Source: Burkholderiales bacterium
GTDB taxonomy: Bacteria > Pseudomonadota > Gammaproteobacteria > Burkholderiales > Casimicrobiaceae
Assembly: GCA_025935675.1 (NCBI GenBank)
Contig: JAICUU010000001.1
Span: 3,935-67,934, forward strand
Reading direction: 5' to 3'
Length of the DNA stretch: 64,000 nucleotides
Of the stretch, positions 6,581 to 18,456 are shown piece after piece. The notes beneath the pieces were generated by a model. It did no database searches. It was given only the letters and a program-made list of their open reading frames with translations, and was not told the DNA's origin. Every line of letters begins with the position of its first letter. The stretch's first letter is position 1. A program made the position numbers and the translations under genes.

Positions 6581-7129
6581 ATGGCCAGGCGAGCTTTCCC
6601 ACGCCATCGCGGAACCGGATTCACGTTGCTGGAAGCGCTGTTGGCGCTGACGATCCTGGCCTTCGTGACCGGTCTCGGTGTGCCCGCGTATGGCACGTAC
6701 CTGCGGTCGTACCGGCTGCACCGTGAGGCTCAGTTGCTGGGCTGGGCGCTGCAACTTGCGCGTTCTGAAGCCATCAAGCGCAATTCCCGCGTAAATGTGT
6801 GCAAGTCCTTTGATCGCGTCCACTGCGCCAAATCGGGCGGCTTCGAGGCGGGCTGGCTCGTCCACGCGGACCCCGATCTGAAGGGTCAACCCACGGCGGA
6901 CGACCCGCCGCTGCGCATCGAGGGCCGGGCACCCGAGGGCATCACGATCCGCGGCAACAAGCCGGTCGCCGACGTCGTGTCGTACACGGCCTTCGGCCAC
7001 CCGCGGCTCCTCGGCGGTGGCCTGCAGATGGGCACGTTCACGCTGTGCAGCCCCGGCAGCCGCGCCGTGCACGTCGTGCTCGCCAACAGCGGCCGGATCC
7101 GCATCGAGGATACCGCCGATCCGTGCTAA
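6581..7129 (+). CDS. fimT: type IV pilus minor pilin, GspH/FimT family
   Basis: 182 aa with the prepilin leader ...RGTG/FTLLEALLALTILAF. The stretch EAQLLGWALQLARSEAIKRNSRVNVC is typical of FimT/GspH. Confidence 0.8.
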   Translation: MARRAFPRHRGTGFTLLEALLALTILAFVTGLGVPAYGTYLRSYRLHREAQLLGWALQLARSEAIKRNSRVNVCKSFDRVHCAKSGGFEAGWLVHADPDLKGQPTADDPPLRIEGRAPEGITIRGNKPVADVVSYTAFGHPRLLGGGLQMGTFTLCSPGSRAVHVVLANSGRIRIEDTADPC

Positions 7130-7280
7130 AAAACCGTTCGTAACCCGCTGATTGCATGGGGCGACGCGCTCACAACAAAGCGTCCGCCGTCCATGCCATC
7201 AAAGCGCGCCACTGGTCAGCATGGCCGCCCCCGGCAGCGCGGGATTCTCTACGATGCAGCCGTCGAAATGGGGAGTGACC

Positions 7281-7736
7281 ATGGAACGGTACCCGGGCCG
7301 CGTACGCGGATTCACGCTGATCGAGGTGATGATCGTCGTCATCATCGTCGGCATCCTCGCGGCGATCGCGCTGCCGAGCTATTTCCAGTACATCCAGCGC
7401 TCGAAGATCATCGAGGCGACGACGGGGCTGTCGAACTTCCGCACGAAGATGGAACAGTATTTCCTCGACAACCGCGTCTACAAGGACGACAGCCACGATG
7501 CGTGCACCCAGTTCCTGGCGAGCATCCAGGCACAGGTTCACGCGTTCACGCTGAGTTGCCCGTCGCAGGGCACGAACACGTATTCGCTGAAGGCCGTCGG
7601 AAACACGTCGGACGGCATGGATACGGCCTTCGTCTACACCGTCAACGAATCCGACGTGAAGACCTCGGCCGGCCCATCCGGCTGGCCATCGAGCAGCTCG
7701 TGCTGGGTCACCAAGAAGGACGGCACGTGCAGCTGA
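7281..7736 (+). CDS. pilE: type IV pilin PilE-like (minor pilin)
   Basis: In frame with track ORF 7152..7736. I place the start at ATG 7281, preceded by GGGAG (7271-7275). Translation MERYPGRVRG/FTLIEVMIVVIIVGILAAIALPSYFQYIQRSKIIEAT... matches PilE (COG4968-like). There is a C-terminal Cys pair. Confidence 0.8.
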   Translation: MERYPGRVRGFTLIEVMIVVIIVGILAAIALPSYFQYIQRSKIIEATTGLSNFRTKMEQYFLDNRVYKDDSHDACTQFLASIQAQVHAFTLSCPSQGTNTYSLKAVGNTSDGMDTAFVYTVNESDVKTSAGPSGWPSSSSCWVTKKDGTCS

Positions 7737-8314
7737 TGCCGCCACGCGCCCGCGCGTCGCGCGGCTTCACGCTGGTCGAGCTCCTGATCGCGGTGGCGAT
7801 CTTCACGATCCTCGCGCTGCTGGCCGTGCCGATGTACGGCGAGATGATCGCGAACTCGGAGGTGCGCAATGCCGCGGAGAACATCCTGATGGGCCTGCGT
7901 GACGCACAGGCGCGCGCGGTCAAGAACAATGCCCCGGCCAAGTTCGTCCTCGACAGCACGGGCTGGTCGGTCTCGGTGATGGACCCCGAGAGTAACGCGT
8001 ATTACACAGGCGCCTGCGGCACGACGCAGACGGCGACCAGCGCCCCGCTCTGCGTCAAGAGCTACAAGTTCGCCCAGGGCGCGAGCCGCGCGACGATCTC
8101 GGCGACGGGCGAGGTCACGTTCAACGGCCTCGGGCAGATCCTGCCCAACATCGACGGCTCGGACACGTTGAAGCAGGTCGACGTGTCGACGGGCGCGATC
8201 GCGAGCCCGCACAACCTCACCATCCTCATCGGCACCAAGGACAACGCCACGGCGATGAAGATGTGCGATCCCAGTTTCTCCTCGTCCGATCCGCTCGGCT
8301 GTCCCTCGCTATGA
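7736..8314 (+). CDS. type IV pilus minor pilin, GspH/FimU-like
   Basis: In frame with track ORF 7193..8314. ATG 7736 overlaps the pilE stop (cTGATG). Translation begins MPPRARASRG/FTLVELLIAVAIFTILALLAVPMYGEMIANSEVRNAAENILMGLRDAQARAV. Confidence 0.75.
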   Translation: MPPRARASRGFTLVELLIAVAIFTILALLAVPMYGEMIANSEVRNAAENILMGLRDAQARAVKNNAPAKFVLDSTGWSVSVMDPESNAYYTGACGTTQTATSAPLCVKSYKFAQGASRATISATGEVTFNGLGQILPNIDGSDTLKQVDVSTGAIASPHNLTILIGTKDNATAMKMCDPSFSSSDPLGCPSL

Positions 8315-8793
8315 AATCGCTCCCCGCCGCGGCCCGCCGCCAGCAAGGCGCTTTCCTCCTCGAGGCGCTGATCGCGATCCTCATCTTCTCGCTCGGCGTG
8401 CTCGGGATCGTCGGCCTGCAGGCGCGCTCGCTCAAGGCCGTCGGCGACGCCCAGTACCGCGGCGAGGCGGCGTTCTATGCACAAACGCTCGCGGGCCGCA
8501 TGTGGGCGCACGATCCCACCAGCCTGCAGACCTATTTCGGCACCAGTGGCACCGGCTTCACCAACTGGAGCGACCAGGTCACCGCCGCCGGCAGCGGGCT
8601 GCCCGGCGCGGCCGACCGGCCGCCCGAGATCAGCTTCACCAACCTGAGCTCCAAGCAAGGCGTGATGGCCACGATCAAGATCTACTGGCAGGCGCCCGGC
8701 GAGGCCGACCCGTGCGGCGGCGACACCAGCGACGTCAAGTGCTGGCACCAGTACGTCACCTCGGCGGTCGTCGGCAACAACGTGGGATCGTGA
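8311..8793 (+). CDS. pilV: type IV pilus modification protein PilV
   Basis: ATG 8311 overlaps the upstream stop (ATGA). Translation MKSLPAAARRQQG/AFLLEALIAILIFSLGVLGIVGLQARSL... shows the PilV-type N-terminus. Position +1 is Ala rather than Phe. Confidence 0.75.
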   Translation: MKSLPAAARRQQGAFLLEALIAILIFSLGVLGIVGLQARSLKAVGDAQYRGEAAFYAQTLAGRMWAHDPTSLQTYFGTSGTGFTNWSDQVTAAGSGLPGAADRPPEISFTNLSSKQGVMATIKIYWQAPGEADPCGGDTSDVKCWHQYVTSAVVGNNVGS

Positions 8794-8795
8794 TC

Positions 8796-9959
8796 ATGGC
8801 TGCCCGCCGATGCCACCGTCGCCAGCAGGGCTTCAGCCTCATCGATGTCATGGTCGGCATCGTCGTCGCGCTGATCGCGGTGCTCGTCATCTACCAGGTC
8901 TTCGACGTCGCCGAGGGCATCAAGCGCAATGCCACGGGCGCCGGCGACGCGCAGCAGAACGGCTTGCTGTCGACGTTCATGATGGCGCTGCAGGCCGCCG
9001 ACTCCGGCGCCAACATCGCCGTCGTCGCCGACGAGCTCGACGCCTGCCCGAAGGGAGACGGCTCGAGCCAGTCCGACGTCAAGGCGACGCTGCGCCCGTT
9101 CCCGATCATCATCACCGACAGCGGCGACGACGCCGCGTCGGATTCGTTCGTCGTCAACTACGGCTCGGCCGAGCGCGTCGTGACGTCGGTCAACTTCCGC
9201 TCCGCGCCGACGATCGCCCTCGGCGGCGACGGCGATACGTTCGACGTGCAAAGCCCGCTGGGCTTCCAGAAGGACGACATCATCGTCACGATGAGCCCGG
9301 ACGCCAACGGCACGGGCCAGTGCGCGCAGAGCATCGTCAAGGATGTCTCCGCCGTCGATGCCGACGGTTACGTCACGATCACGCACGGTGCGCAGGCCGT
9401 CGCGCCCTCCGGCACGACGAGCGTCTCGGGCAGCTCGTCGCTGCTGAACCTCGGCCCGACGCCGCGGCGGATCCAGTACAGCGTCGACGGCAACGGCACG
9501 CTGCAGTCGCTCGAGCTCTTCAACGTCGCGGACGGCACGACCTCGGTGCCCATCGCCAACAACGTCGTGCTGATGAAGATCCAGTACGGCATCGCCGACC
9601 CCGCGACCGGCTTCCTGCAGAAGTGGGTCAAGGCCGGCAACGACGGCAGCGAGGACTGGAGCGCCAACCAGATGCTGCAGAAGAGCTACACCGACCTGTC
9701 GCGGATCAAGGCGGTGCGCATCGCGCTGGTCGTGCGCAGCGAGTCCTACGACAAGTGCGCCTACGCGGACACCTGCCCGAACCCGACGTCCAACACCTTC
9801 AGCTACACGCTGTTCGGCCAGTGCGACGGCATCCCCTGCCCCGATGCCATCACCGGGTCGCTCGACCCGACGCCCGGCAAGGGCAACTTCCGCTATCGCG
9901 TCTACGAGACGGTCATCCCGTTGCGCAACGCCGTGTGGAACCTGCACAAGGCCGCCTGA
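8796..9959 (+). CDS. pilW: type IV pilus assembly protein PilW
   Basis: In frame with track ORF 8502..9959, with ATG 8796 lying 2 nt after the pilV stop. Translation begins MAARRCHRRQQG/FSLIDVMVGIVVALIAVLVIYQVF. Size (387 aa) and operon position fit PilW. Confidence 0.75.
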   Translation: MAARRCHRRQQGFSLIDVMVGIVVALIAVLVIYQVFDVAEGIKRNATGAGDAQQNGLLSTFMMALQAADSGANIAVVADELDACPKGDGSSQSDVKATLRPFPIIITDSGDDAASDSFVVNYGSAERVVTSVNFRSAPTIALGGDGDTFDVQSPLGFQKDDIIVTMSPDANGTGQCAQSIVKDVSAVDADGYVTITHGAQAVAPSGTTSVSGSSSLLNLGPTPRRIQYSVDGNGTLQSLELFNVADGTTSVPIANNVVLMKIQYGIADPATGFLQKWVKAGNDGSEDWSANQMLQKSYTDLSRIKAVRIALVVRSESYDKCAYADTCPNPTSNTFSYTLFGQCDGIPCPDAITGSLDPTPGKGNFRYRVYETVIPLRNAVWNLHKAA

Positions 9960-9962
9960 CCC

Positions 9963-10604
9963 ATGACGCGCGCACGCATTCCGAATCGCCGCCCCGCCGC
10001 GCTCCGCGCGCAGCGCGGCATCGTTCTCTTCATCGCGCTCATCGTGATGGTCGCGCTGTCGCTCGCGGGCGTCGCGCTGGTGCGCTCGGTCGAGACCACC
10101 GGATCGGTCACCGGCAACCTCGCGTTCCGGCAGTCGGCGCTGCTGCAGGCCAACTGGGCCGTCGAGGATGCGATCGGCCATGTCTACAAGCTCGACACGA
10201 GCCTCGATCCCTCGTCGCTGATCGACACGACGACGACCGACAACAGCGTGTTCTACAGCGCGATATTCGACCCGACCAAGGACTCGACCAAGTCGGCACA
10301 GCCGGGGCTGCCGTCCGGCGTCCCCGACCTCCTCTGGAAGAAGAGCGCGTTGCCGGCGGCCTACACCGACACCGCGAGCGGCAATGAAGTCAGGTATTTC
10401 ATCCAGCGGATGTGCACCTCCGCGGCCGAAGGCGCGACGGCGAACCAGGCGCAGTGCGACCTGATGCAGCCCAAGCAGGCGCTCGGCACGACGGTTGGCG
10501 ACGAGGCGATCAGCGTCGGCAAGTTCCCGCTTTACCGCGTCACCGTCCGCGTGGACGGCCCCAATAATTCGCTGGCTTTCATTCAAGCCATGATCCGTGG
10601 ATGA
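9963..10604 (+). CDS. pilX: type IV pilus assembly protein PilX
   Basis: 213 aa with a PilX_N-like N-terminus QRGIVLFIALIVMVALSLAGVALVRSVETTGSVTGN. It lies between pilW and pilY1. Confidence 0.75.
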   Translation: MTRARIPNRRPAALRAQRGIVLFIALIVMVALSLAGVALVRSVETTGSVTGNLAFRQSALLQANWAVEDAIGHVYKLDTSLDPSSLIDTTTTDNSVFYSAIFDPTKDSTKSAQPGLPSGVPDLLWKKSALPAAYTDTASGNEVRYFIQRMCTSAAEGATANQAQCDLMQPKQALGTTVGDEAISVGKFPLYRVTVRVDGPNNSLAFIQAMIRG

Positions 10605-10626
10605 CGGCAACCGCCCGGGAATCATC

Positions 10627-13600
10627 ATGAAGACATTCCGCAAGCCGTCCTTGTTCCGCCAGGCGCTCGCCGCCGCGCTGGCCATCCTCGTCGGCCTCGG
10701 GCCGGTGGCGACGCCCGCATACGCGGCGCTGACCGCGCTTTCCGACGAGCCGCTCAACGTCAAGAACTCGTCGAAGCCGAACATCGTGCTGACGATCGAC
10801 GACTCGACGTCGATGCTGTTCGACTTCCTGCCCGACACGGTGATCGACCGCTACTGCCGCGACGGCATGGGCTCGATGAGCTCGGTCTGCGGCGTGCCCG
10901 GCTACCAGGGCGACTTCTCGGCGTTCGGCTTCGGCAAGGACGTGACGCCGGGCTACATCTTCCAGCAATACAACTATCCGTTCACGACGTTCTCGAGCCA
11001 CGACAACACGTCGCCGTCGGTCGTCAACTACGACGTCGCGGGACCCGGCTCGGGATGCGATACGTCGATTCCCCGCTGCTCGCCCGGCGTCGACGTCGGC
11101 ACGAGCCCCGGCCTCCCGGTGTACCCGTCCACGGCGCTCTATTCCGACCAGACCAACCCCAACATCAACAGCGGCACCGCGTACAACGCCTACGGCTACT
11201 GGAAGCTGTGGCCGGCGCCGGCGCACAACAACGCCTTCAACCACCTCTATTACAACCCGATGCTGACGTACGCGCCGCCCGTCCACGCGGATGGCACGAG
11301 CTACGACAGCATGAATGCGACCAATACGACCAGCTGGACCAAGGTGCCGGTGGATCCGTTCGCGTCCACGATCGTCTACGCGGATCTCACCGCGAATGTG
11401 ACGGTGGGCCAGTGGTGCAACTCGGACTGGAGCGTCGGCCACGAGGACGACCCGGCGTATTGCCGCACCAACGGCGTCGGCCCGACGTCGACGAGCGCCG
11501 CGCTCGCCACGAGCGATGGCGACTACCTGTATCCCTACGTGCCGTCGGGCATCAATCCGTTCTACAACCTCGGCTACAAGAACGATAACGTCAACCCCGA
11601 CACGAACAAGTACACGATCGGCATGTCGATCGCGTACTCGAAGGTCAGCTCCACCGACAAGAGCGCCGTCAACGCGAGCGTCTGGAACCTCGGGGACTCG
11701 AGCGGCAGCGCCAAGGATTCCAAGTACTTCTTCGAGAACGACAACGTGCTGTGGTGCGATGCCACCGCGGCAAATTGGCCACATGGCGGCCCCACGCAGT
11801 CGCAAACCTGCACGGGCGCACAGACGCAGACCTGTAACGGCTTCGTCGCCGGCACGTGTACCGGCGGCTCGCAAACCTGCACGGGCACCGCGCAAACGTG
11901 CAAATCGAATTCGCAGACCTGCGTCAACAAGACCGCGACGCAGACCTGCCAGGCGCCCGCCACGCAGACCTGCAACAACATCACCGCACAGACCTGCAAC
12001 GGCTACCAGACGCAGACCTGCACCAACATCCAAGGCCAGTCCTGCAACGGCTACCAGACGCAGACCTGCGGGCTCGCCTCGCAGACCTGCAACGGCTACA
12101 AGACGCAGACCTGCAATCTCAAGAAGACCTGCGCCCAGAGCGGCTCGGCGTGCACGACCAGCGCCGACTGCCCGGACGACAGCACCACGTGCTCGACGCA
12201 ATTCGACCCGCCGGGTTGCAACACCTGCGTGGGCCCGGAATGCGGCACCTGCACGCTGAAGACCGTCTGCCAGAAGCAGGCCTGCAACACGTCGGGCGCC
12301 TGCTCCGTCAGCGGCGCCGGCTGCTCGAGCGACGCGAATTGCCCGGCCATCAACGGCAGCTGCAGCCTCACCGGCGCCGCTTGCGTCGGGAGCGGGGCCG
12401 GTAACTGCACCAACGCCGGCCACTGCAGCGTCAATACCGGCACCGTCTGCACGAGCGACGCCAACTGCGCGGCGATCAACGGCGCCTGCAGCAAGACCAG
12501 CGTCGCCTGCCAGCCCGCCAACGCGGCAACGCAATGCCCGGCCACCGGCAATTGCTCGGTGAATACCGGCACCTCGTGTACGACCAACGCCAATTGCGCG
12601 GCAATCAACGGCAAGTGCAGCGTCAGCAACGCCGCGTGCACGGGCACTGGCGCGGGCAACTGCCCGGCGCTCGGCAAGTGCTCGATCAGCAACGCGCAGT
12701 GCCAGACCAACGCCAACTGCCCGAACGTCGGCGGCACCTGCGACCTGACCGGCAAGGCCTGCGCGTCCGGGACCTGCCCGAAGGCGGGCAATTGCTCGAT
12801 CGTCACGACGACAGTCTGCGACACCAATTCGGATTGCGCCGCGGTCAAGAAGTGCTCGATCACCGGCGCCTCGTGCTCGGTGAATGCCGACTGCCCGGCG
12901 CAGAACCTGAAGTGCAGCATCGACGGCAATGCCTGCGCGACGAGCGCCGACTGCCCGGCGATCGCCAAGACCTGTTCGGCGGGCAACGTCGGTGCGACTT
13001 GCACGACCAACGCGAGCTGCAACGTCGCCGGACATTGCTCGATCCAGACCGGTACGGCGTGCACCACCAACGCCAACTGCCCGGTTGTTGCCGGGGCGTG
13101 CTCGATCAGCGGCGCCGCGTGCACGACCAACGCGAACTGCCCAGGCATCCCGACGGCCAGCGCCTCGGCGGTGTGCTCCGACATGCTGGCGGACGCCTCC
13201 CACACGCTGCGCTACGATGCCGATCATGACGGCGTGGTCTGCCGCCACAACAACAAGGCGTATGCGGACGGCACGTCGGCCGCGGCGTTCAACTATCCGA
13301 ACAGCAAGTACAACACGCCCGTCACTGCCGGCACCGGCGCCGACGCCTGCGTGGCGACGCCACGCTTCAAGGCGGTGCCGCGCCATTACTGGGTGACCAA
13401 CGTCGAGTGGTGCGACGCCGCGAACGCGAGCGGACCGTGGACGGGCTACGGCGACAACTCCACCGGCACGTGCCAGTCGTTCAAGGACAGCACGCACGTG
13501 TACCCGCGCTTCTACCAGTTCGGCGCCGGTCCGGCCGATACGGGTTACGCCAACAACGTCACCACGCCGGCGTTCCAGCGCATCGACCTCATTTCCGGCA

Positions 13601-16551
13601 ACTCGTACACGTTCACGTACAAGTCGGTGGACTGGGCGACCAGCACCGAGCAGGGCACCGACACCGTGACGCGGACGTACGCGCAGGAGATGGAGAATTA
13701 CGCCAACTGGTTCGCCTACTACCGCACCCGCATCCAGGCGGTGAAGACGGTGACGTCGCTGTCGTTCCTCGGCAAGGACCCGACGACGAGCAAGTTCAAC
13801 GTCGACGAGAACTTCCGCGTCGGGCTGCATTCGCTGTCGACCAACGCCTCCGGCGTCGCCACGGCGTTCGTGCCGCCCGATTACTTCGACGACACGCAGA
13901 AGTCGAGCTGGGCGACGAAGCTGTTCGGCATGGTGATCAACATGGCGCAGAACACGCCGAACCTTTCGGCCGTCGAGCGCATCGGCGACTACTACAAGAA
14001 CGGCAGCAGCACGGCGCTCGACACGACGACCGATCCGATCGTGCTCTCCTGCCAGAAGAACTGGCACATGCTGTTCACCGACGGCCTCACGTTCCAGGAC
14101 GCGCTGCCGACGTTCCAGCCCGGCGATCAGGATTTGACGATCAAATCCAACAACACGACGGACACGACGAAGATGCCGTTCTGCCAGAACGTCGTCGACA
14201 ACGTCACCGACTTGAAGCCCGGCGACAAGTGGCCGCACCCCTACCGCGAGGACGAGAGCAACACGATCGAGAACTCGGTAGCCGACTACGCCACGTACTA
14301 CTGGGCCAACGACCTGCGCCCCGACATGGACAACAACGTCGGCAAGAGCGCCCAGGACGAGGCGTGCTGGCAGCACGTCAACTTCGCGGCGATCTCGCTC
14401 GGCACAGAAGGCAAGCTCGCGGCCGGCGACCAGAGCGGCGTCGAGGCGCAGCTGACTGCCGGAGCAATCCAGTGGCCAACGCCGTATCCGTCCACGATCG
14501 CGCCGGACGCGTCCGGCGTCGACGACCTGTGGCATTCGTCGCTCAATTCACGTGGCCGGTTCGTCAACGCCAACAACGCGGACGAGATCAAGGTCGGAAT
14601 GGGCGCGATCCTCGCCGACATCGAGAACCAGGAAGGCTCGCGCGCCGGCGCCGGCTTGCAGTCCGTGAACTTCACGGCGAGCGGCACCAGCGCGTACTCG
14701 GTGACATTCGAGCCGGGCTGGGGCGGCATCGTCTCCAAGAACTCGATCGATCCCGTGACTTTCGCGATCCAGAGCACCTCGTGGACGGTGGGCGGCGGCA
14801 AGACGGGCGACGTGCTGAAGACGCAGCTCACCCCCACGCTGGCCAAGCCGACGCCGTGGGATACCAATCGCAAGATCGTGACGATGCACACCAACGGCAC
14901 CCCGGTCCCGTTCGTGTTCGACCAGCTCTCGTCGACGCAGCAGGATTCGCTGGCGCCCGGCAAGCCGGCGATCGGCAAGCAGGTGCTCGAGTATCTGCGC
15001 GGCAGCAACGTCAACGAGGGCCCGGCGACGCTCAACTTCCGTTCGCGCGCCTCCGCAGGGCCGCTCGGCGACATCGTCAACGCGTCGCCGAGATTCGTCG
15101 GCAAGCCGAACATGCCGTACCAGGATTTCGCGGATCCGGGCTACAGCGCCTTCGCCTCGAGCAACAGCACGCGCGAAGGCATGGTGTACGTGGCCTCGAA
15201 CGACGGCATGCTGCACGGCTTCGTCGACGAGACGGGGAACGAGCTCTTCGCCTACGTCCCGCGCACGATCATCCGTCCGACGGAAACCGACAGCACGAAC
15301 CCGGATCCCGGCATCCCCGCGCTCACGCTCAAGGAAGGCGCGCTGCCGCCGTTCAAGCATCACTTCTACGTCGACACGACGCCCAAGGTCGTCGACGTCG
15401 ACTTCGGCGACAAGGACTGGCACACGATCCTCGTCGGCGGCCTCGGCAAGGGCGGTCACGCGTACTACGCGCTCGACGTCACCGATCCCGACGGCATTCT
15501 CAACGAAAGCGATGCGGCGTCGCGCGTCCTCTGGGAGTTCACCGACGACGACCTCGGTTACACCTACGGGCCTGCGCTGGTCACCAAGACGGCGGCATGG
15601 GACCGCAAATGGGTGGTGATCGTGCCGTCCGGCTACAACAACAAGTCCGGTGTCGGCAAGATCTGGGTGCTGGACGCGAAGACGGGCGAAGTGCTGAAGA
15701 CCCTGTCGACCGGCTTCGGCAGCTCCACCAGCCCCTCGGGCCTCGCGCAGATCGCGGGCTTCACGCAGAACTATCACAACTACCTGTCGGATGAGGTCTA
15801 CGGCGGAGACCAGTACGGCAATGTCTGGCGCTTCGACCTGCGCGACACCAATCCGGACAACTGGACGGTCGGCCTGCTGGCCAAGCTCACCGCGCCCGAC
15901 GGCACGGCGCAGCCGGTCACGACGGCGCCGCAGATCGAGATCGACATCGTCAACGGCGCCGACCGGTGGGTCTTCGTCGGTACCGGCCGCCTGCTCGACA
16001 CCAGCGACCAGGACAACGACCAGATCCAGTCGTTCTACGCGCTGCGCGATGGCACGCAGAAGCTGCCGGGGACGATCGTCAGCGGCTCGCCGGTCGTGCG
16101 CACCGATCTCAACGCGGTCACCGACGAGAACGGCACGGCGGGCATCAACGCAAAGGGCTGGGTCAACGACCTGCCGCAATTCAGCCAGGTGACGACGCCC
16201 TTCCAGGCCGTGTTGTCGATCGTCGTGTACGCGGCCACCAAGCCGCAGACCGATCCGTGCCTGACCGGGCAGGCCGCGGACATCTACGTGCGGTCGTTCG
16301 CGCAGGGCGTGTCGCAGATCGATTCCGCGGCAGCGACGTCGTCGGGGATCACCTGCAGCGCCAACTCGTGCGAATCGGAGAACGGCGCGGTCGGCGCGGA
16401 AATCATCGGCACGACCGCCGACGGGTCGCCCACTGCCGATCTCGCCGTCGCGATCACGCTCGGCAGCTCAGGGCGCATCGCGAAGATTCCGATCAAGCAG
16501 CCGTCGTGGAACTACACGCACCGGCTGTCGTGGCGGATCCTGTCCGAGTAG
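10627..16551 (+). CDS. pilY1: PilY1-like type IV pilus tip adhesin with giant Cys-rich repeat insertion
   Basis: Track ORF 10597..16551; the start is probably ATG 10627 (signal peptide MKTFRKPSLFRQALAAALAILVGLGPVATPAYA). It has a MIDAS-like DDSTS (10798-10812), NYANWFAYYRTR and LFTDG motifs. The C-terminal PilY1/PilC propeller motifs are GMVYVASNDGMLHGF, LVGGLGKGGHAYYALDVTDP and YGGDQYGNVWRFDL. Confidence 0.85.
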   Translation: MKTFRKPSLFRQALAAALAILVGLGPVATPAYAALTALSDEPLNVKNSSKPNIVLTIDDSTSMLFDFLPDTVIDRYCRDGMGSMSSVCGVPGYQGDFSAFGFGKDVTPGYIFQQYNYPFTTFSSHDNTSPSVVNYDVAGPGSGCDTSIPRCSPGVDVGTSPGLPVYPSTALYSDQTNPNINSGTAYNAYGYWKLWPAPAHNNAFNHLYYNPMLTYAPPVHADGTSYDSMNATNTTSWTKVPVDPFASTIVYADLTANVTVGQWCNSDWSVGHEDDPAYCRTNGVGPTSTSAALATSDGDYLYPYVPSGINPFYNLGYKNDNVNPDTNKYTIGMSIAYSKVSSTDKSAVNASVWNLGDSSGSAKDSKYFFENDNVLWCDATAANWPHGGPTQSQTCTGAQTQTCNGFVAGTCTGGSQTCTGTAQTCKSNSQTCVNKTATQTCQAPATQTCNNITAQTCNGYQTQTCTNIQGQSCNGYQTQTCGLASQTCNGYKTQTCNLKKTCAQSGSACTTSADCPDDSTTCSTQFDPPGCNTCVGPECGTCTLKTVCQKQACNTSGACSVSGAGCSSDANCPAINGSCSLTGAACVGSGAGNCTNAGHCSVNTGTVCTSDANCAAINGACSKTSVACQPANAATQCPATGNCSVNTGTSCTTNANCAAINGKCSVSNAACTGTGAGNCPALGKCSISNAQCQTNANCPNVGGTCDLTGKACASGTCPKAGNCSIVTTTVCDTNSDCAAVKKCSITGASCSVNADCPAQNLKCSIDGNACATSADCPAIAKTCSAGNVGATCTTNASCNVAGHCSIQTGTACTTNANCPVVAGACSISGAACTTNANCPGIPTASASAVCSDMLADASHTLRYDADHDGVVCRHNNKAYADGTSAAAFNYPNSKYNTPVTAGTGADACVATPRFKAVPRHYWVTNVEWCDAANASGPWTGYGDNSTGTCQSFKDSTHVYPRFYQFGAGPADTGYANNVTTPAFQRIDLISGNSYTFTYKSVDWATSTEQGTDTVTRTYAQEMENYANWFAYYRTRIQAVKTVTSLSFLGKDPTTSKFNVDENFRVGLHSLSTNASGVATAFVPPDYFDDTQKSSWATKLFGMVINMAQNTPNLSAVERIGDYYKNGSSTALDTTTDPIVLSCQKNWHMLFTDGLTFQDALPTFQPGDQDLTIKSNNTTDTTKMPFCQNVVDNVTDLKPGDKWPHPYREDESNTIENSVADYATYYWANDLRPDMDNNVGKSAQDEACWQHVNFAAISLGTEGKLAAGDQSGVEAQLTAGAIQWPTPYPSTIAPDASGVDDLWHSSLNSRGRFVNANNADEIKVGMGAILADIENQEGSRAGAGLQSVNFTASGTSAYSVTFEPGWGGIVSKNSIDPVTFAIQSTSWTVGGGKTGDVLKTQLTPTLAKPTPWDTNRKIVTMHTNGTPVPFVFDQLSSTQQDSLAPGKPAIGKQVLEYLRGSNVNEGPATLNFRSRASAGPLGDIVNASPRFVGKPNMPYQDFADPGYSAFASSNSTREGMVYVASNDGMLHGFVDETGNELFAYVPRTIIRPTETDSTNPDPGIPALTLKEGALPPFKHHFYVDTTPKVVDVDFGDKDWHTILVGGLGKGGHAYYALDVTDPDGILNESDAASRVLWEFTDDDLGYTYGPALVTKTAAWDRKWVVIVPSGYNNKSGVGKIWVLDAKTGEVLKTLSTGFGSSTSPSGLAQIAGFTQNYHNYLSDEVYGGDQYGNVWRFDLRDTNPDNWTVGLLAKLTAPDGTAQPVTTAPQIEIDIVNGADRWVFVGTGRLLDTSDQDNDQIQSFYALRDGTQKLPGTIVSGSPVVRTDLNAVTDENGTAGINAKGWVNDLPQFSQVTTPFQAVLSIVVYAATKPQTDPCLTGQAADIYVRSFAQGVSQIDSAAATSSGITCSANSCESENGAVGAEIIGTTADGSPTADLAVAITLGSSGRIAKIPIKQPSWNYTHRLSWRILSE
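11809..13176 (+). repeat. in-frame cysteine-rich tandem repeat array inside pilY1 (aa 405-860 of the track ORF)
   Basis: Sub-array A (about 11800-12132) has about 14 copies of (S/T)QTC spaced 6-9 residues apart. Sub-array B (about 12301-13176) has about 14 modules of 18-25 residues with the pattern CS-x5,6-C-x4,7-C-x5,6, for example CSVNTGTSCTTNANCAAINGK. I count 67 Cys by hand. Confidence 0.9.
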
Positions 16552-16572: not shown

Positions 16573-16604
16573 ACGGCCGCGCCGCCTCCAAGCGGCGCGG
16601 CCGT
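16573..16604 (+). terminator. perfect 13-bp stem hairpin downstream of pilY1 (terminator or attenuating structure)
   Basis: ACGGCCGCGCCGC-CTCCAA-GCGGCGCGGCCGT followed by TGTCGTTGTCG, which is only a weak U-tract. It starts 22 nt after the pilY1 stop. Confidence 0.45.
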
Positions 16605-16630
16605 TGTCGTTGTCGAGCCCGCCTTCGCAC

Positions 16631-17374
16631 ATGAACGCCGCCGTGCTCCCCGCCTCGCCGCCGATCGCGCTGCGGTTGCCGGCGTCGCTCGCGGTGTCGC
16701 TCGCGATCCACGTGGTGCTGCTGGTGTCGATCGGCGTGCTGTTGCGCGCCATGCCGGCGACCCTCGGCCCGCAGCGAAACGTCGCACAGGCGCTGACCGC
16801 GGACATCATCACGCTGCCCGAACTGAGCCCCGAGCTGACCGCGCCATTGCCGGCGCTCGCGCCGGTCGAGCCGATCCGTGAAATGATGCCGCCGCCGGTC
16901 GCACCGGTGTCGCGCAACACGCCCGAGCCTGGCCTGTCGACGGCGCCCGCGACGATCCAGGCCAGCGCCGAGTTCGCGCCGGTCGGACGGATCTCGTATC
17001 GTTTCGGCGACGGCGCGCGTCTTTTCGGCGCCGATCTCGCGAAGCGCATGGCGGCGCGGTTTCCCGAAGTGGCCGCGCGCCCGCCGCGCATCGACGGCAG
17101 CCTGTCGGCGATGTACCCGGTGAAGGCGGCGCGCGAGGGGCGCTCGCAGGCGCTGTCGGCGCTCGTGTCGATCGACGCGCAGGGTCACATCACCGATGTC
17201 CGGGTGTTGCCGGACGATCCGGTCTTCGCCGCGGCGGTGATGGCGGCCGTGCGCAACGCGCGCTTCCAGCCGGCACAGATCCTTGGCAAGCCCGCGCCCT
17301 ATTGGGCCGTGCTCGATTTCACGTTCAAGATCGATGGACCTACGGGTCCTGACGGCAAGCTCCTCGACAGATAG
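16631..17374 (+). CDS. TonB family energy transducer
   Basis: In frame with track ORF 16604..17374; ATG 16631 lies outside the hairpin. It has a TM helix with SLAIH (the SxxxH motif), a Pro-rich linker PLPALAPVEPIREMMPPPVAPV, and a TonB C-terminal domain YPVKAAREGRSQALSALVSIDAQGHITDVRVL...AAVRNARFQPA. Confidence 0.75.
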   Translation: MNAAVLPASPPIALRLPASLAVSLAIHVVLLVSIGVLLRAMPATLGPQRNVAQALTADIITLPELSPELTAPLPALAPVEPIREMMPPPVAPVSRNTPEPGLSTAPATIQASAEFAPVGRISYRFGDGARLFGADLAKRMAARFPEVAARPPRIDGSLSAMYPVKAAREGRSQALSALVSIDAQGHITDVRVLPDDPVFAAAVMAAVRNARFQPAQILGKPAPYWAVLDFTFKIDGPTGPDGKLLDR

Positions 17375-17892: not shown

Positions 17893-18456
17893 ATGAGCTC
17901 ATGCGCAAAATTAGTGGATTCCCCGGAGACGCTGGCGTATGCGGTCCTGATACGGCCGGCGAAGGGAGGCGGTTATGTCGTAACCTGCCGTGACCTGCCG
18001 GAGCTCATCACCCAAGGGGATTGTCTCGAACATGCGCTGGCCGAGGCGGTCGACGCGATGGACGAGGCGATCGCCGCACGGATGGACGACGGTGAGGATC
18101 TTCCCGCCGCGACTGCATCGCGCAAGGGGGAACACTTCGTCACGCCGAGCGCGGAATTGGGCGCAAAGGCGGCGCTCTACCTGGCGATGCGGGAAGCGGG
18201 CATGTCCAAGGCGGAACTCGCACGCAGGCTGCAAGTGGACGAAAAGGAAGTTCGTCGACTTCTCGACCCACGCCACCGGTCCAGGTTGCCGCGGATGGAC
18301 GAAGCGCTTCGCATCCTCGGCAAGCGGCTCGTGCTGAGTCTTTGCCCGATGATCGAGCCGGCCATCGCGGCGGCACATGGCCGCGATAGCCATGCACCGA
18401 CAACCACGCTGCACATCCGACGAACCAGCAAGGGTGCCCCGCTCAGCCGCGGATAG
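17893..18456 (+). CDS. hicB: type II antitoxin HicB with C-terminal HTH
   Basis: 187 aa. The N-terminal HicB fold is YAVLIRPAKGGGYVVTCRDLPELITQGDCLEHALAEAVDAMDEAI and the HTH is MSKAELARRLQVDEKEVRRLLD. There is an unusual tail of about 35 aa after LGKRLVLS. Confidence 0.8.
   Translation: MSSCAKLVDSPETLAYAVLIRPAKGGGYVVTCRDLPELITQGDCLEHALAEAVDAMDEAIAARMDDGEDLPAATASRKGEHFVTPSAELGAKAALYLAMREAGMSKAELARRLQVDEKEVRRLLDPRHRSRLPRMDEALRILGKRLVLSLCPMIEPAIAAAHGRDSHAPTTTLHIRRTSKGAPLSRG

Follow-up and report, generated by a model that had tools for sequence, protein, structure and literature searches.

The PilY1 protein encoded in a 64,000-nucleotide stretch of contig JAICUU010000001.1 (assembly GCA_025935675.1, an uncultured soil betaproteobacterium of the Burkholderiales, family Casimicrobiaceae; the whole stretch is called the window below) carries two separate cysteine repeat arrays in its N-terminal head. 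What is chiefly new is a coupling of the copy numbers of these two arrays, tier 1 and tier 2, across homologues, together with a mirrored register of the blocks amplified in both. We consider it probable that the insert forms an antiparallel, two-limbed, disulfide-bonded stalk in the PilY1 head, with a knot at its tip and all of its cysteines paired.

Organization of the cysteine array

Residue numbers here count from the ATG at 10627. Those of an earlier reading of this DNA from its letters alone (the initial annotation) were counted from a GTG and are 10 higher. Nucleotides 11809–13176 are exactly residues 395–850, and a recount confirmed the two-tier array of ~456 residues and ~67 cysteines that had been described there. 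This segment holds 67 of the 84 cysteines of PilY1 (14.7% of its residues); the remaining 1518 residues hold 17 (1.1%), an enrichment with a binomial p of ~6e-52. Successive array cysteines are 3–12 residues apart, with a mean of 6.9. The composition is 80% C/T/S/N/A/G/Q, and the initial description of it as almost only these residues, with no hydrophobic core residues, was slightly overstated, since 10% of the residues are V/I/L/F/Y.

Tier 1 has the 14 repeats first counted, but the motif proposed for them is looser than claimed; a strict (S/T)Q(T/S)C is present in nine of the 14 and Q(T/S)C in 12. It is separated from tier 2 by a central knot of 10 cysteines, two of which (Cys531 and Cys542) are 100% conserved in the homologue alignment, while three pairs (534/539, 502/515 and 522/548) are each lost jointly in homologues. 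For tier 2, both the number of three-cysteine modules and their size were as first described. Their consensus is C-S-x5-7-C-(T/S)(T/S)(N/D)A(N/D)-C-P-x3-G-x, and a 2-module super-period is present in the knot-proximal half. The coordinates of these parts, and of the two invariant cysteines (377 and 850) outside the tiers, are collected in Table 1. The flank that follows the array, residues 851–1023, has four conserved cysteines of its own (872, 908, 929 and 949). The arrangement had originally been taken for two nested periodicities. It is instead a pair of distinct arrays, coupled 1:1 in copy number and mirroring each other from the base.

At the DNA level, a search with Tandem Repeats Finder reported tier 1 only, with a period of 24/48 and 63–76% match. 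The repeat families in the array DNA are 60–90% identical, with a longest exact repeat of 18 nt, and the tier-2 copies are 60–84% identical. The copies are old. Phase variation by slipped-strand mispairing was considered and rejected because the repeats are too diverged.

Coupled copy number of the two tiers

The number of array cysteines in the homologues is odd throughout (61, 63, 65, 67, 69, 71, 73, 77, 79, 85, 97, 99, 101, 103 and 121), with a single exception in a protein whose array starts unusually close to its N-terminus. Cysteines before and after the knot were counted from a MAFFT alignment, using the invariant Cys531 and Cys542 columns as landmarks. Each of these two counts is odd or even depending on the homologue, and their sum keeps its parity. 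An invariant total parity is as predicted by full disulfide pairing in which at least some of the bonds cross the knot.

Over a range of 11–30 pre-knot cysteines, there are about three times as many cysteines after the knot as before it (raw r = 0.91), with observed pre-/post-knot pairs of 11/32, 14/43, 16/49, 20/61, 22/67, 24/73, 26/77 and 30/89. Independent contrasts on a neighbour-joining tree built from the non-array parts of the proteins, fitted through the origin, give r = 0.90 and a slope of 2.8. The informative contrasts have the same sign in 37 cases and the opposite sign in four, and many sister contrasts are exactly 1:3 (2/6, 4/12, −5/−15, −6/−18). In five independent deletions located by the alignment, tier 1 has lost as many repeats as tier 2 has lost modules: 1:1, 1:1, 2:2, 2:2 and 4:4.

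Gains show the same matching. In the sublineage of homologues P0054 and P0063, a two-repeat unit of tier 1 (CNTGNGT + CxGxxAGx) and a two-module unit of tier 2 (with a CGPINK marker) have been amplified, and the marker counts of tier 1 to tier 2 in three proteins are 9:8, 6:6 and 3:3. P0054 has its unit amplified 8–9 times in tier 1 and eight times in tier 2, and P0063 six times in both. Counted from the base, the amplified block of P0054 spans rungs 5–19 in tier 1 and ~6–20 in tier 2, and that of P0063 spans rungs 5–15 and ~6–16. If both tiers are counted from N- to C-terminus, the blocks are offset by 6 units. The window protein independently has the same signature: counted from the base, its near-identical lag-2 units fall at repeats 9/11/13 of tier 1 and modules 10/12/14 of tier 2.

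Because one duplication cannot extend two non-adjacent arrays, selection must maintain the match between the tiers. The simplest reason for copy-number matching would be a packing of the i-th repeat of one limb against the i-th module of its partner.

Conservation and distribution

A full-length search recovered ~85 protein clusters of 1850–2430 residues with the same architecture, all from Casimicrobiaceae or Betaproteobacteria metagenome-assembled genomes (MAGs) wherever source names are given. Their arrays hold 47–121 cysteines, 67 being the most common number. A few relatives of 1520–1580 residues have a short version of the array with 15–20 cysteines, and the ordinary Ramlibacter and Rhodanobacter PilY1s in the homologue set have no array. 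When each GTDB species was scanned through a single genome, 69 loci were found to encode array relatives, many of them on contigs of 0.1–4.3 Mb. Nearly all are from Casimicrobiaceae or uncultured betaproteobacterial MAGs; the remainder are one Aromatoleum MAG, one ‘Anaerolineae’ contig, and a few with no label finer than Pseudomonadota/Proteobacteria or Burkholderiales. The extreme elaboration suggested in the initial annotation is not a one-off, and arrays of this kind are the usual condition across an entire family-level clade.

In several MAGs there are two or three pilY1 paralogs with the array (L003/L005, L008/L012, L016/L036 and L006/L009/L058), and the cysteine counts of paralogs can differ strongly (116 vs. 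78 in CAVZQQ). The window has a single array-bearing pilY1. Two records carry discordant labels, L035 (JALOOB010000192.1) as Anaerolineae and P0162 (HXD48000.1) as Gemmatimonadaceae. Both are on short contigs and look like binning errors, P0162 being >90% identical to the betaproteobacterial gene. At several loci from MFD-labelled MAGs, probably long-read assemblies, the pilY1 frame is fragmented; L002, for example, has an open reading frame (ORF) of only 640 residues across the array. Such broken frames would be better explained by sequencing indels than by pseudogenes.

In an alignment of 77 homologues, almost all of the array cysteine columns are 94–100% conserved, and overall identity within the array is ~35–45%. 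Against L070, an 80%-identical ortholog, the ratio of nonsynonymous to synonymous substitution rates (dN/dS) is 0.15–0.19 in the array and 0.075–0.09 elsewhere, and it is 0.21 for the non-cysteine codons of the array; these values are rough since dS is near 1. The identical protein is recorded on a 70.7-kb NCBI contig, independent assemblies from JGI, ENA and NCBI contain proteins >90% identical to it, and the 67-cysteine array is also present in homologues only 60–80% identical. The array is a genuine, conserved domain under purifying selection.

Searches for related families and folds

The array and its flanks, four large homologues and single double modules gave no Pfam or NCBIfam match that reached the cut-off of the model. 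The initial annotation had placed the array outside any named repeat family, and this was borne out at the curated cut-offs of Pfam and NCBIfam and in sequence and Foldseek searches of the PDB. Below threshold, matches to WAP, EGF_3, DPY, DUF7107 and TIGR04201 appear among the array, the homologues and the double modules. The most frequent is TIGR04201 (Myxo_Cys_RPT), in 10 of the 23 double modules with a best E of 0.014 (cut-off 25 bits); neither the whole protein nor the whole array matches it at E ≤ 10. The Dumpy DPY model PF21164 touches six of the 23 (best E 0.018, below 27 bits). WAP reaches E 0.016 on the array, with 15.9 bits against a threshold of 20.8. EGF_3 and WAP touch eight and seven of the 23 double modules, all below threshold, which leaves the array outside the EGF-like and WAP families.

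Sequence searches of the PDB with the array and with a tier-2 module profile gave nothing significant, the sole match being scytovirin (E 5.2, from the module profile). An AlphaFold2 model of residues 350–900, built with 38 homologues, has a mean predicted local distance difference test (pLDDT) score of 83.3 and a predicted template modelling (pTM) score of 0.33. In this model, tier 1 has 4-residue strands every 7–8 residues, and each tier-2 module consists of a short hairpin and then a one-turn helix. Foldseek found no neighbour of it in the PDB (best E 3.1). The matches for this model and for one of residues 30–1229 were chance-level ones to flavivirus E and TRAP.

A tier-2 double-module profile, searched against 1.84 billion representative proteins, matched at least 42 proteins at E ≤ 0.001. 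A search with the tier-2 sequence by itself gave a single frameshifted fragment and did not recover the identical protein, which we attribute to the composition filter of HMMER, and such HMMER-based carrier counts are lower bounds. The proteins matched by the profile include family members and their fragments, other PilY1-like proteins and unrelated secreted proteins. Among the PilY1-like ones, P0126, P0144 and P0135 have cysteine-module arrays directly after the MIDAS (metal ion-dependent adhesion site) motif. In several of the unrelated secreted bacterial proteins, and in other PilY1-like proteins with such arrays, a free-standing four-cysteine module, CSxTTxTxCxxDxDCPxxETC, recurs. P0155 is pilin-like, with an N-terminal methylation motif, and has looser variants of the module that fail the strict pattern. 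The proteins with four-cysteine or related modules are P0127, P0128, P0135, P0137, P0143, P0154, P0155, P0126 and P0144. No Pfam or NCBIfam model covers these proteins at its cut-off, TIGR04201 and Dumpy_DPY again appearing below threshold only. Since secreted proteins carry the module free-standing, tier 2 would most simply be a head-to-tail fusion of it in which the boundary cysteine is shared, leaving three cysteines per unit.

The head domain that holds the array

Residues 1–76, 200–255 and 1021–1153 of the window protein align to residues 1–76, 86–139 and ~203–325 of ordinary PilY1s of 1200–1300 residues. The window protein is ~750 residues longer than these, and ~765 extra residues separate its DxSxS motif from the NYANWFAYYRTR helix. 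DxSxS is 966 residues away from NYANW, compared to 135–150 in ordinary PilY1s.

The N-terminal landmarks named in the initial annotation are all present, at positions 10 lower than it gave: DDSTS at 58, YYNP at 208, NYANWFAYYRTR at 1024 and LFTDG at 1149. The threonine of YYRTR (residue 1034) is invariant in 49 homologues and is presumably the MIDAS threonine. Together, DDSTS, this threonine and LFTDG match the MIDAS pattern reported for the von Willebrand factor A (vWA) domain of P. aeruginosa PilY1 (PMC8806160). At the level of fold, Pfam VWA matched neither the array flanks nor the spliced N-terminal domain, and a PDB search with a family profile of the array-less N-terminal domain found no match. 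The AlphaFold2 model of residues 30–1229 has a pLDDT of 66, and its best vWA-type Foldseek match is TRAP (4hqo_A) at E 7.3. The earlier placement of the insertion in a vWA head is supported by the motifs, with DxSxS, T and TDG invariant; the head is vWA-like at the motif level only.

PilY1 is located at the tip of the pilus and bears retraction forces. Adhesion forces measured in P. aeruginosa are ~130–210 pN, and one cysteine of the PilY1 vWA domain alters both adhesion force and surface signalling there (PMC8806160).

A proposed hairpin stalk and its alternatives

The reading that we favour is as follows. The chain would leave the head through limb 1 (tier 1), with one 8-residue, one-cysteine repeat per rung, turn at the far end in the 10-cysteine knot, and return through limb 2 (tier 2), with one hairpin-plus-turn module of ~21 residues and three cysteines per rung. 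With the limbs antiparallel, the ends of the insert would meet at the base. This geometry would bring the two termini of the 456-residue insert side by side, a convenient arrangement for insertion into a folded domain.

Each rung would have four cysteines and thus two disulfides. In the window protein, 14 from limb 1, 42 from limb 2, 10 from the knot, and Cys377 and Cys850 make 68 cysteines, or 34 disulfides. From this arithmetic, 14 + 42 + 10 + 2 = 68, Cys377 and Cys850 would be left to form a clasp at the base. The simplest disulfide map would join C1 to C3 within each module and C2 to the limb-1 cysteine, which would then take the place of the fourth cysteine of the free-standing module. 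Judged by spacing alone, the cysteines outside the array could pair locally (77/88, 144/151, 264/279 and 872/908/929/949).

The product would be a stiff, covalently cross-braced rod that pilus retraction forces could not open. Given the strength of disulfide bonds, a rod with two of them per rung would not unfold at PilY1 adhesion forces. Its length would be set in evolution by gain and loss of rungs, from ~4 (P0077) to ~30 (P0054) among the relatives, with 26 in P0063. It would hold the conserved knot, and a polar surface rich in T/S/N/Q, out from the pilus tip, reaching or binding substrata as a spacer or adhesin. Array length does vary, both among lineages and between paralogs of one genome, and a stiff stalk with a tuned length is the function we infer. 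The initial suggestion of a disulfide-bonded, nonglobular stalk is the best reading of the conserved cysteine parity, the near-invariant cysteine columns and a model with a pLDDT of 83 and a pTM of 0.33. The beetle-antifreeze-like solenoid offered with it did not survive, since the 8-residue, one-cysteine period of tier 1 is too short for a coil and PF02420 touches one of the 23 double modules, at E 0.055. More tentatively, with slightly less confidence than an even chance would deserve, we propose that the array is an undescribed ‘disulfide zipper’: an 8-residue, one-cysteine array and a 21-residue, three-cysteine array paired rung by rung, antiparallel and matched by selection, making a nano-rod of a few to ~30 rungs at the pilus tip.

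One variation falls at what would be the C-terminal side of the stalk base. In P0009, P0122 and P0123, an extra domain of ~170 residues (NGxFExPxxxxYxYxPxGxxWxF…GSYRIxFxAAxR) sits between the last array cysteine and the LxxDAxxxGxVCR(R/H)NN segment, the equivalent of window ~13180–13230. No Pfam match covers it in P0122 or P0123 (E ≤ 0.01), and P0009 gives only PF05567 (E ≤ 1).

Several points weigh against the paired stalk. Contacts and disulfides between the tiers are what we infer, as is the function of the stalk. A beads-on-a-string arrangement would be consistent with the pTM of 0.33 as well. Some homologues depart from the 1:3 relationship: P0030 has 20 pre-knot and 41 post-knot cysteines, one group has 16 and 53, and short-array relatives such as P0077 fit n2 = 3*n1 + 1 poorly (n1 and n2 being the pre- and post-knot counts). 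P0167, which is near-identical to the window protein, is without two tier-1 repeats, its tier 2 being unchanged. It lacks the 16 residues TNIQGQSCNGYQTQTC (window ~12016–12063, residues 465–480), which lie between two identical CNGYQTQTC units. The difference may be a genuine polymorphism in the population or the collapse of a 48-nt period in a short contig. The copy counts rest on a repeat alignment; alignment-free counting with regular expressions was misled by knot-like motifs recurring in tier 1 and could not place the knot reliably, and the alignment-based counts were kept. Finally, the evidence from P0054, P0063 and P0023 comes from one sublineage.

The alternative that fares best, which we nonetheless regard as unlikely, is a linear fibre of two independent runs of disulfide modules, comparable to the EGF and DPY modules in Dumpy or to CREMP, with the limbs unpaired and bonds formed within modules or between neighbours. 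A high pLDDT with a low pTM, the sub-threshold resemblance of the modules to DPY, EGF_3 and WAP, and the tier-1-only copy changes of P0030 and P0167 are all consistent with it, and Chironomus Sp185 is a known case of disulfides between modules (PMC12723725). However, such a fibre leaves unexplained the 1:3 cysteine coupling with its contrast slope of 2.8, the matched deletions, the matched amplification numbers with their base-mirrored register, and the pre- and post-knot parities that vary around a fixed sum. The ends of a linear 456-residue insert would also be far apart, which is awkward inside a folded domain.

Somewhat less probable still is that the array is chiefly a ligand-binding surface for a glycan, mineral or ice, with flat arrays of Thr/Asn/Ser/Gln such as those of antifreeze proteins or small disulfide-rich lectins. 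In the species studied, PilY1 acts as an adhesin (PMC8806160), 80% of the array residues are polar or small with TxT-like QTQTC motifs, the sole PDB match of the module profile is a lectin, and one double module touches the insect antifreeze family. Every one of these similarities is nonsignificant, and the non-cysteine residues are only moderately conserved (the 35–45% identity and dN/dS of 0.21 given above), which fits a scaffold better than a precise face. This reading is compatible with the hairpin fold and competes with it on function only.

We reject a metallothionein-like array of reduced cysteines binding metal through thiolates or acting in redox, which we hold to be very improbable: the very high cysteine content and one double module touching Pfam Metallothio (E 0.65) are in its favour, but the signal peptide and the pilus-tip location put the array in an oxidising compartment, the cysteines are evenly spaced at ~7 residues with no CxC/CxxC clusters outside the knot, their strict, conserved parity is as disulfide pairing predicts and unlike metal clusters, and AlphaFold2 predicts beta-hairpins. 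An assembly artefact, a pseudogene or a noncoding low-complexity stretch, as might be suspected from a repetitive sequence with metagenome-only sources, frameshifts at some long-read loci and a 48-nt repeat unit by which P0167 differs, can practically be dismissed given the intact 5.9-kb frame, a dN/dS well below 1, the same 67-cysteine array in independent assemblies and in diverged homologues, and array DNA repeats too diverged for collapse.

Comparison with known proteins

With the PilY1/PilC tip adhesins (P. aeruginosa PilY1, 3HX6, and the cysteine-rich myxobacterial clades 1.5–1.7), the window protein shares the propeller, the minor-pilin operon and the DxSxS...T...D pattern. It also shares the concentration of cysteines in the N-terminal half and a length and cysteine content that depend on the clade. 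A further trait of the family is a calcium-binding site in the propeller that governs extension and retraction. It differs in having 84 cysteines, with up to 136 in relatives, whereas described PilY1s have 7–41 (PMC13190605), and none has been described with two copy-number-coupled repeat arrays.

The four-cysteine module and TIGR04201 have the same CS-hairpin-C-xx(D/N)x(D/N)-CP core as tier 2, and the proteins carrying the module were found by the tier-2 profile at E 1e-6 to 7e-12. The module is single and has four cysteines, whereas the tier-2 units have three, are fused head to tail and have their counterpart in a distinct one-cysteine array. Drosophila Dumpy DPY (PF21164, PDB 1OIG) and CREMP/Sp185 likewise have disulfide mini-modules of ~21 residues with a ...DCP... 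core, arrayed in long tandems within extracellular fibres that bear tension (PMC12723725). DPY differs in its Cx5Cx5Cx4C pattern, with four cysteines, two internal disulfides and a linear arrangement between EGF modules; the tier-2 modules have three cysteines spaced x6-8 / x5 / x5-6, plus a partner limb. With no significant match between them, the resemblance may be convergent. The antifreeze protein of Tenebrio molitor (PF02420), a beta-helix of 12-residue TCTxSxxCxxAx repeats, is similar in having short Thr/Cys-rich repeats and a regular cysteine ladder. Its period is 12 residues with two cysteines, compared to eight with one here, and Foldseek of the array model against the PDB gave no beta-helix match.

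The pilY1 gene and its neighbourhood

The long ORF at 10597..16551 on the forward strand encodes PilY1, as seen from the ORF list and its translation, and its frame is unbroken across 5.9 kb. The ATG at 10627 is the most likely start because a GGGAA lies 7–11 nt upstream and public gene calls use the same start. The signal peptide is probably cleaved after AYA, and its presence implies export into the oxidising periplasm. The identification as PilY1 by the initial annotation was borne out by the C-terminal propeller, which scores 133 bits with PF05567 (E 1.7e-38), where the cut-off is 28.1, by a match to PDB 3HX6 with E 3.4e-39, and by the position of the gene as the last of a fimT-pilE-fimU-pilV-pilW-pilX minor-pilin operon. 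Homologue P0003 has the identical minor-pilin gene order flanking its pilY1.

Directly downstream of pilY1 is a gene for a TonB_C-domain protein (16604–17374), and further on is one for a HicB-like antitoxin (17893–18456). On the contig of P0003, TonB_C and HicB-like neighbours likewise follow pilY1, such that the pilY1-tonB_C linkage is conserved. An antisense ORF of 1318 residues (10579–14535, reverse strand) overlaps pilY1. Its translation is rich in Arg/Ala/Gly, and it looks like a by-product of the 65% G+C content and the repeat rather than a gene.

Table 1. Features of pilY1 and its upstream operon in the window, with positions numbered from the first nucleotide of the window.
Feature	Position (residues)	Strand	Basis or remark
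Minor-pilin operon	6581..10604	+	Upstream of pilY1; Pfam GspH, N_methyl, ComP_DUS, PilW and PilX_N matches
fimT-like	6581–7129	+	Minor-pilin operon member
ComP_DUS-type pilin	7152–7736	+	Minor-pilin operon member
fimU-like	within 7193–8314	+	Minor-pilin operon member
pilV-like	8263–8793	+	Minor-pilin operon member
pilW	within 8502–9959	+	Minor-pilin operon member
pilX	9963–10604	+	Minor-pilin operon member
pilY1 coding sequence	10627..16551	+	1974 residues plus stop; ORF list, translation, PF05567 and 3HX6 matches
Sec signal peptide MKTFRKPSLFRQALAAALAILVGLGPVATPAYA, predicted	10627..10725	+	Read directly from the sequence
DDSTS, MIDAS-type DxSxS	10798..10812 (58–62)	+	Invariant in 49 aligned homologues
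Cys377, ...NVLWC anchor	11755..11757	+	Column conserved 100%; proposed base-clasp partner of Cys850
Tier 1 (limb 1)	11809..12129 (395–501)	+	14 single-Cys repeats of 6–9 residues, mostly xQTC type
Central 10-Cys knot	12130..12300 (502–558)	+	Contains FDPPGCNTCVGPECGTC; conserved (Y/F)xPPGC...C core, FDPPGC here; proposed distal stalk tip
Tier 2 (limb 2)	12301..13173 (559–849)	+	Exactly 14 three-Cys modules of 18–25 residues (most 20–22)
Cys850	13174..13176	+	Invariant final Cys of the array; column conserved 100%
Lineage-specific post-array flank	13177..13695 (851–1023)	+	Part of the ~765-residue extra segment
NYANWFAYYRTR helix	13696..13731 (1024–1035)	+	Invariant columns; candidate MIDAS Thr; aligns to residues ~203–215 of ordinary PilY1s
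LFTDG	14071..14085 (1149–1153)	+	Invariant F-T-D-G; candidate MIDAS Asp (residue 1152)
C-terminal beta-propeller	15064..16062 (1480–1812)	+	PF05567, 3HX6

Implications

The array and the free-standing four-cysteine module are uncovered by Pfam and NCBIfam at curated cut-offs, and a family definition is missing for them. It is unusual for two separate repeat arrays to be forced to expand in step. If the rung model is true, the result would be a simple, designable, covalently braced rod. The folding of >30 ordered disulfides in the periplasm raises the question of Dsb capacity in these organisms. Type IV pili have PilY1 as their tip adhesin and candidate force sensor, and a whole clade of soil and sludge bacteria with a length-variable stalk of 34 disulfides at that position would be a natural experiment on the reach and stiffness of the pilus tip.

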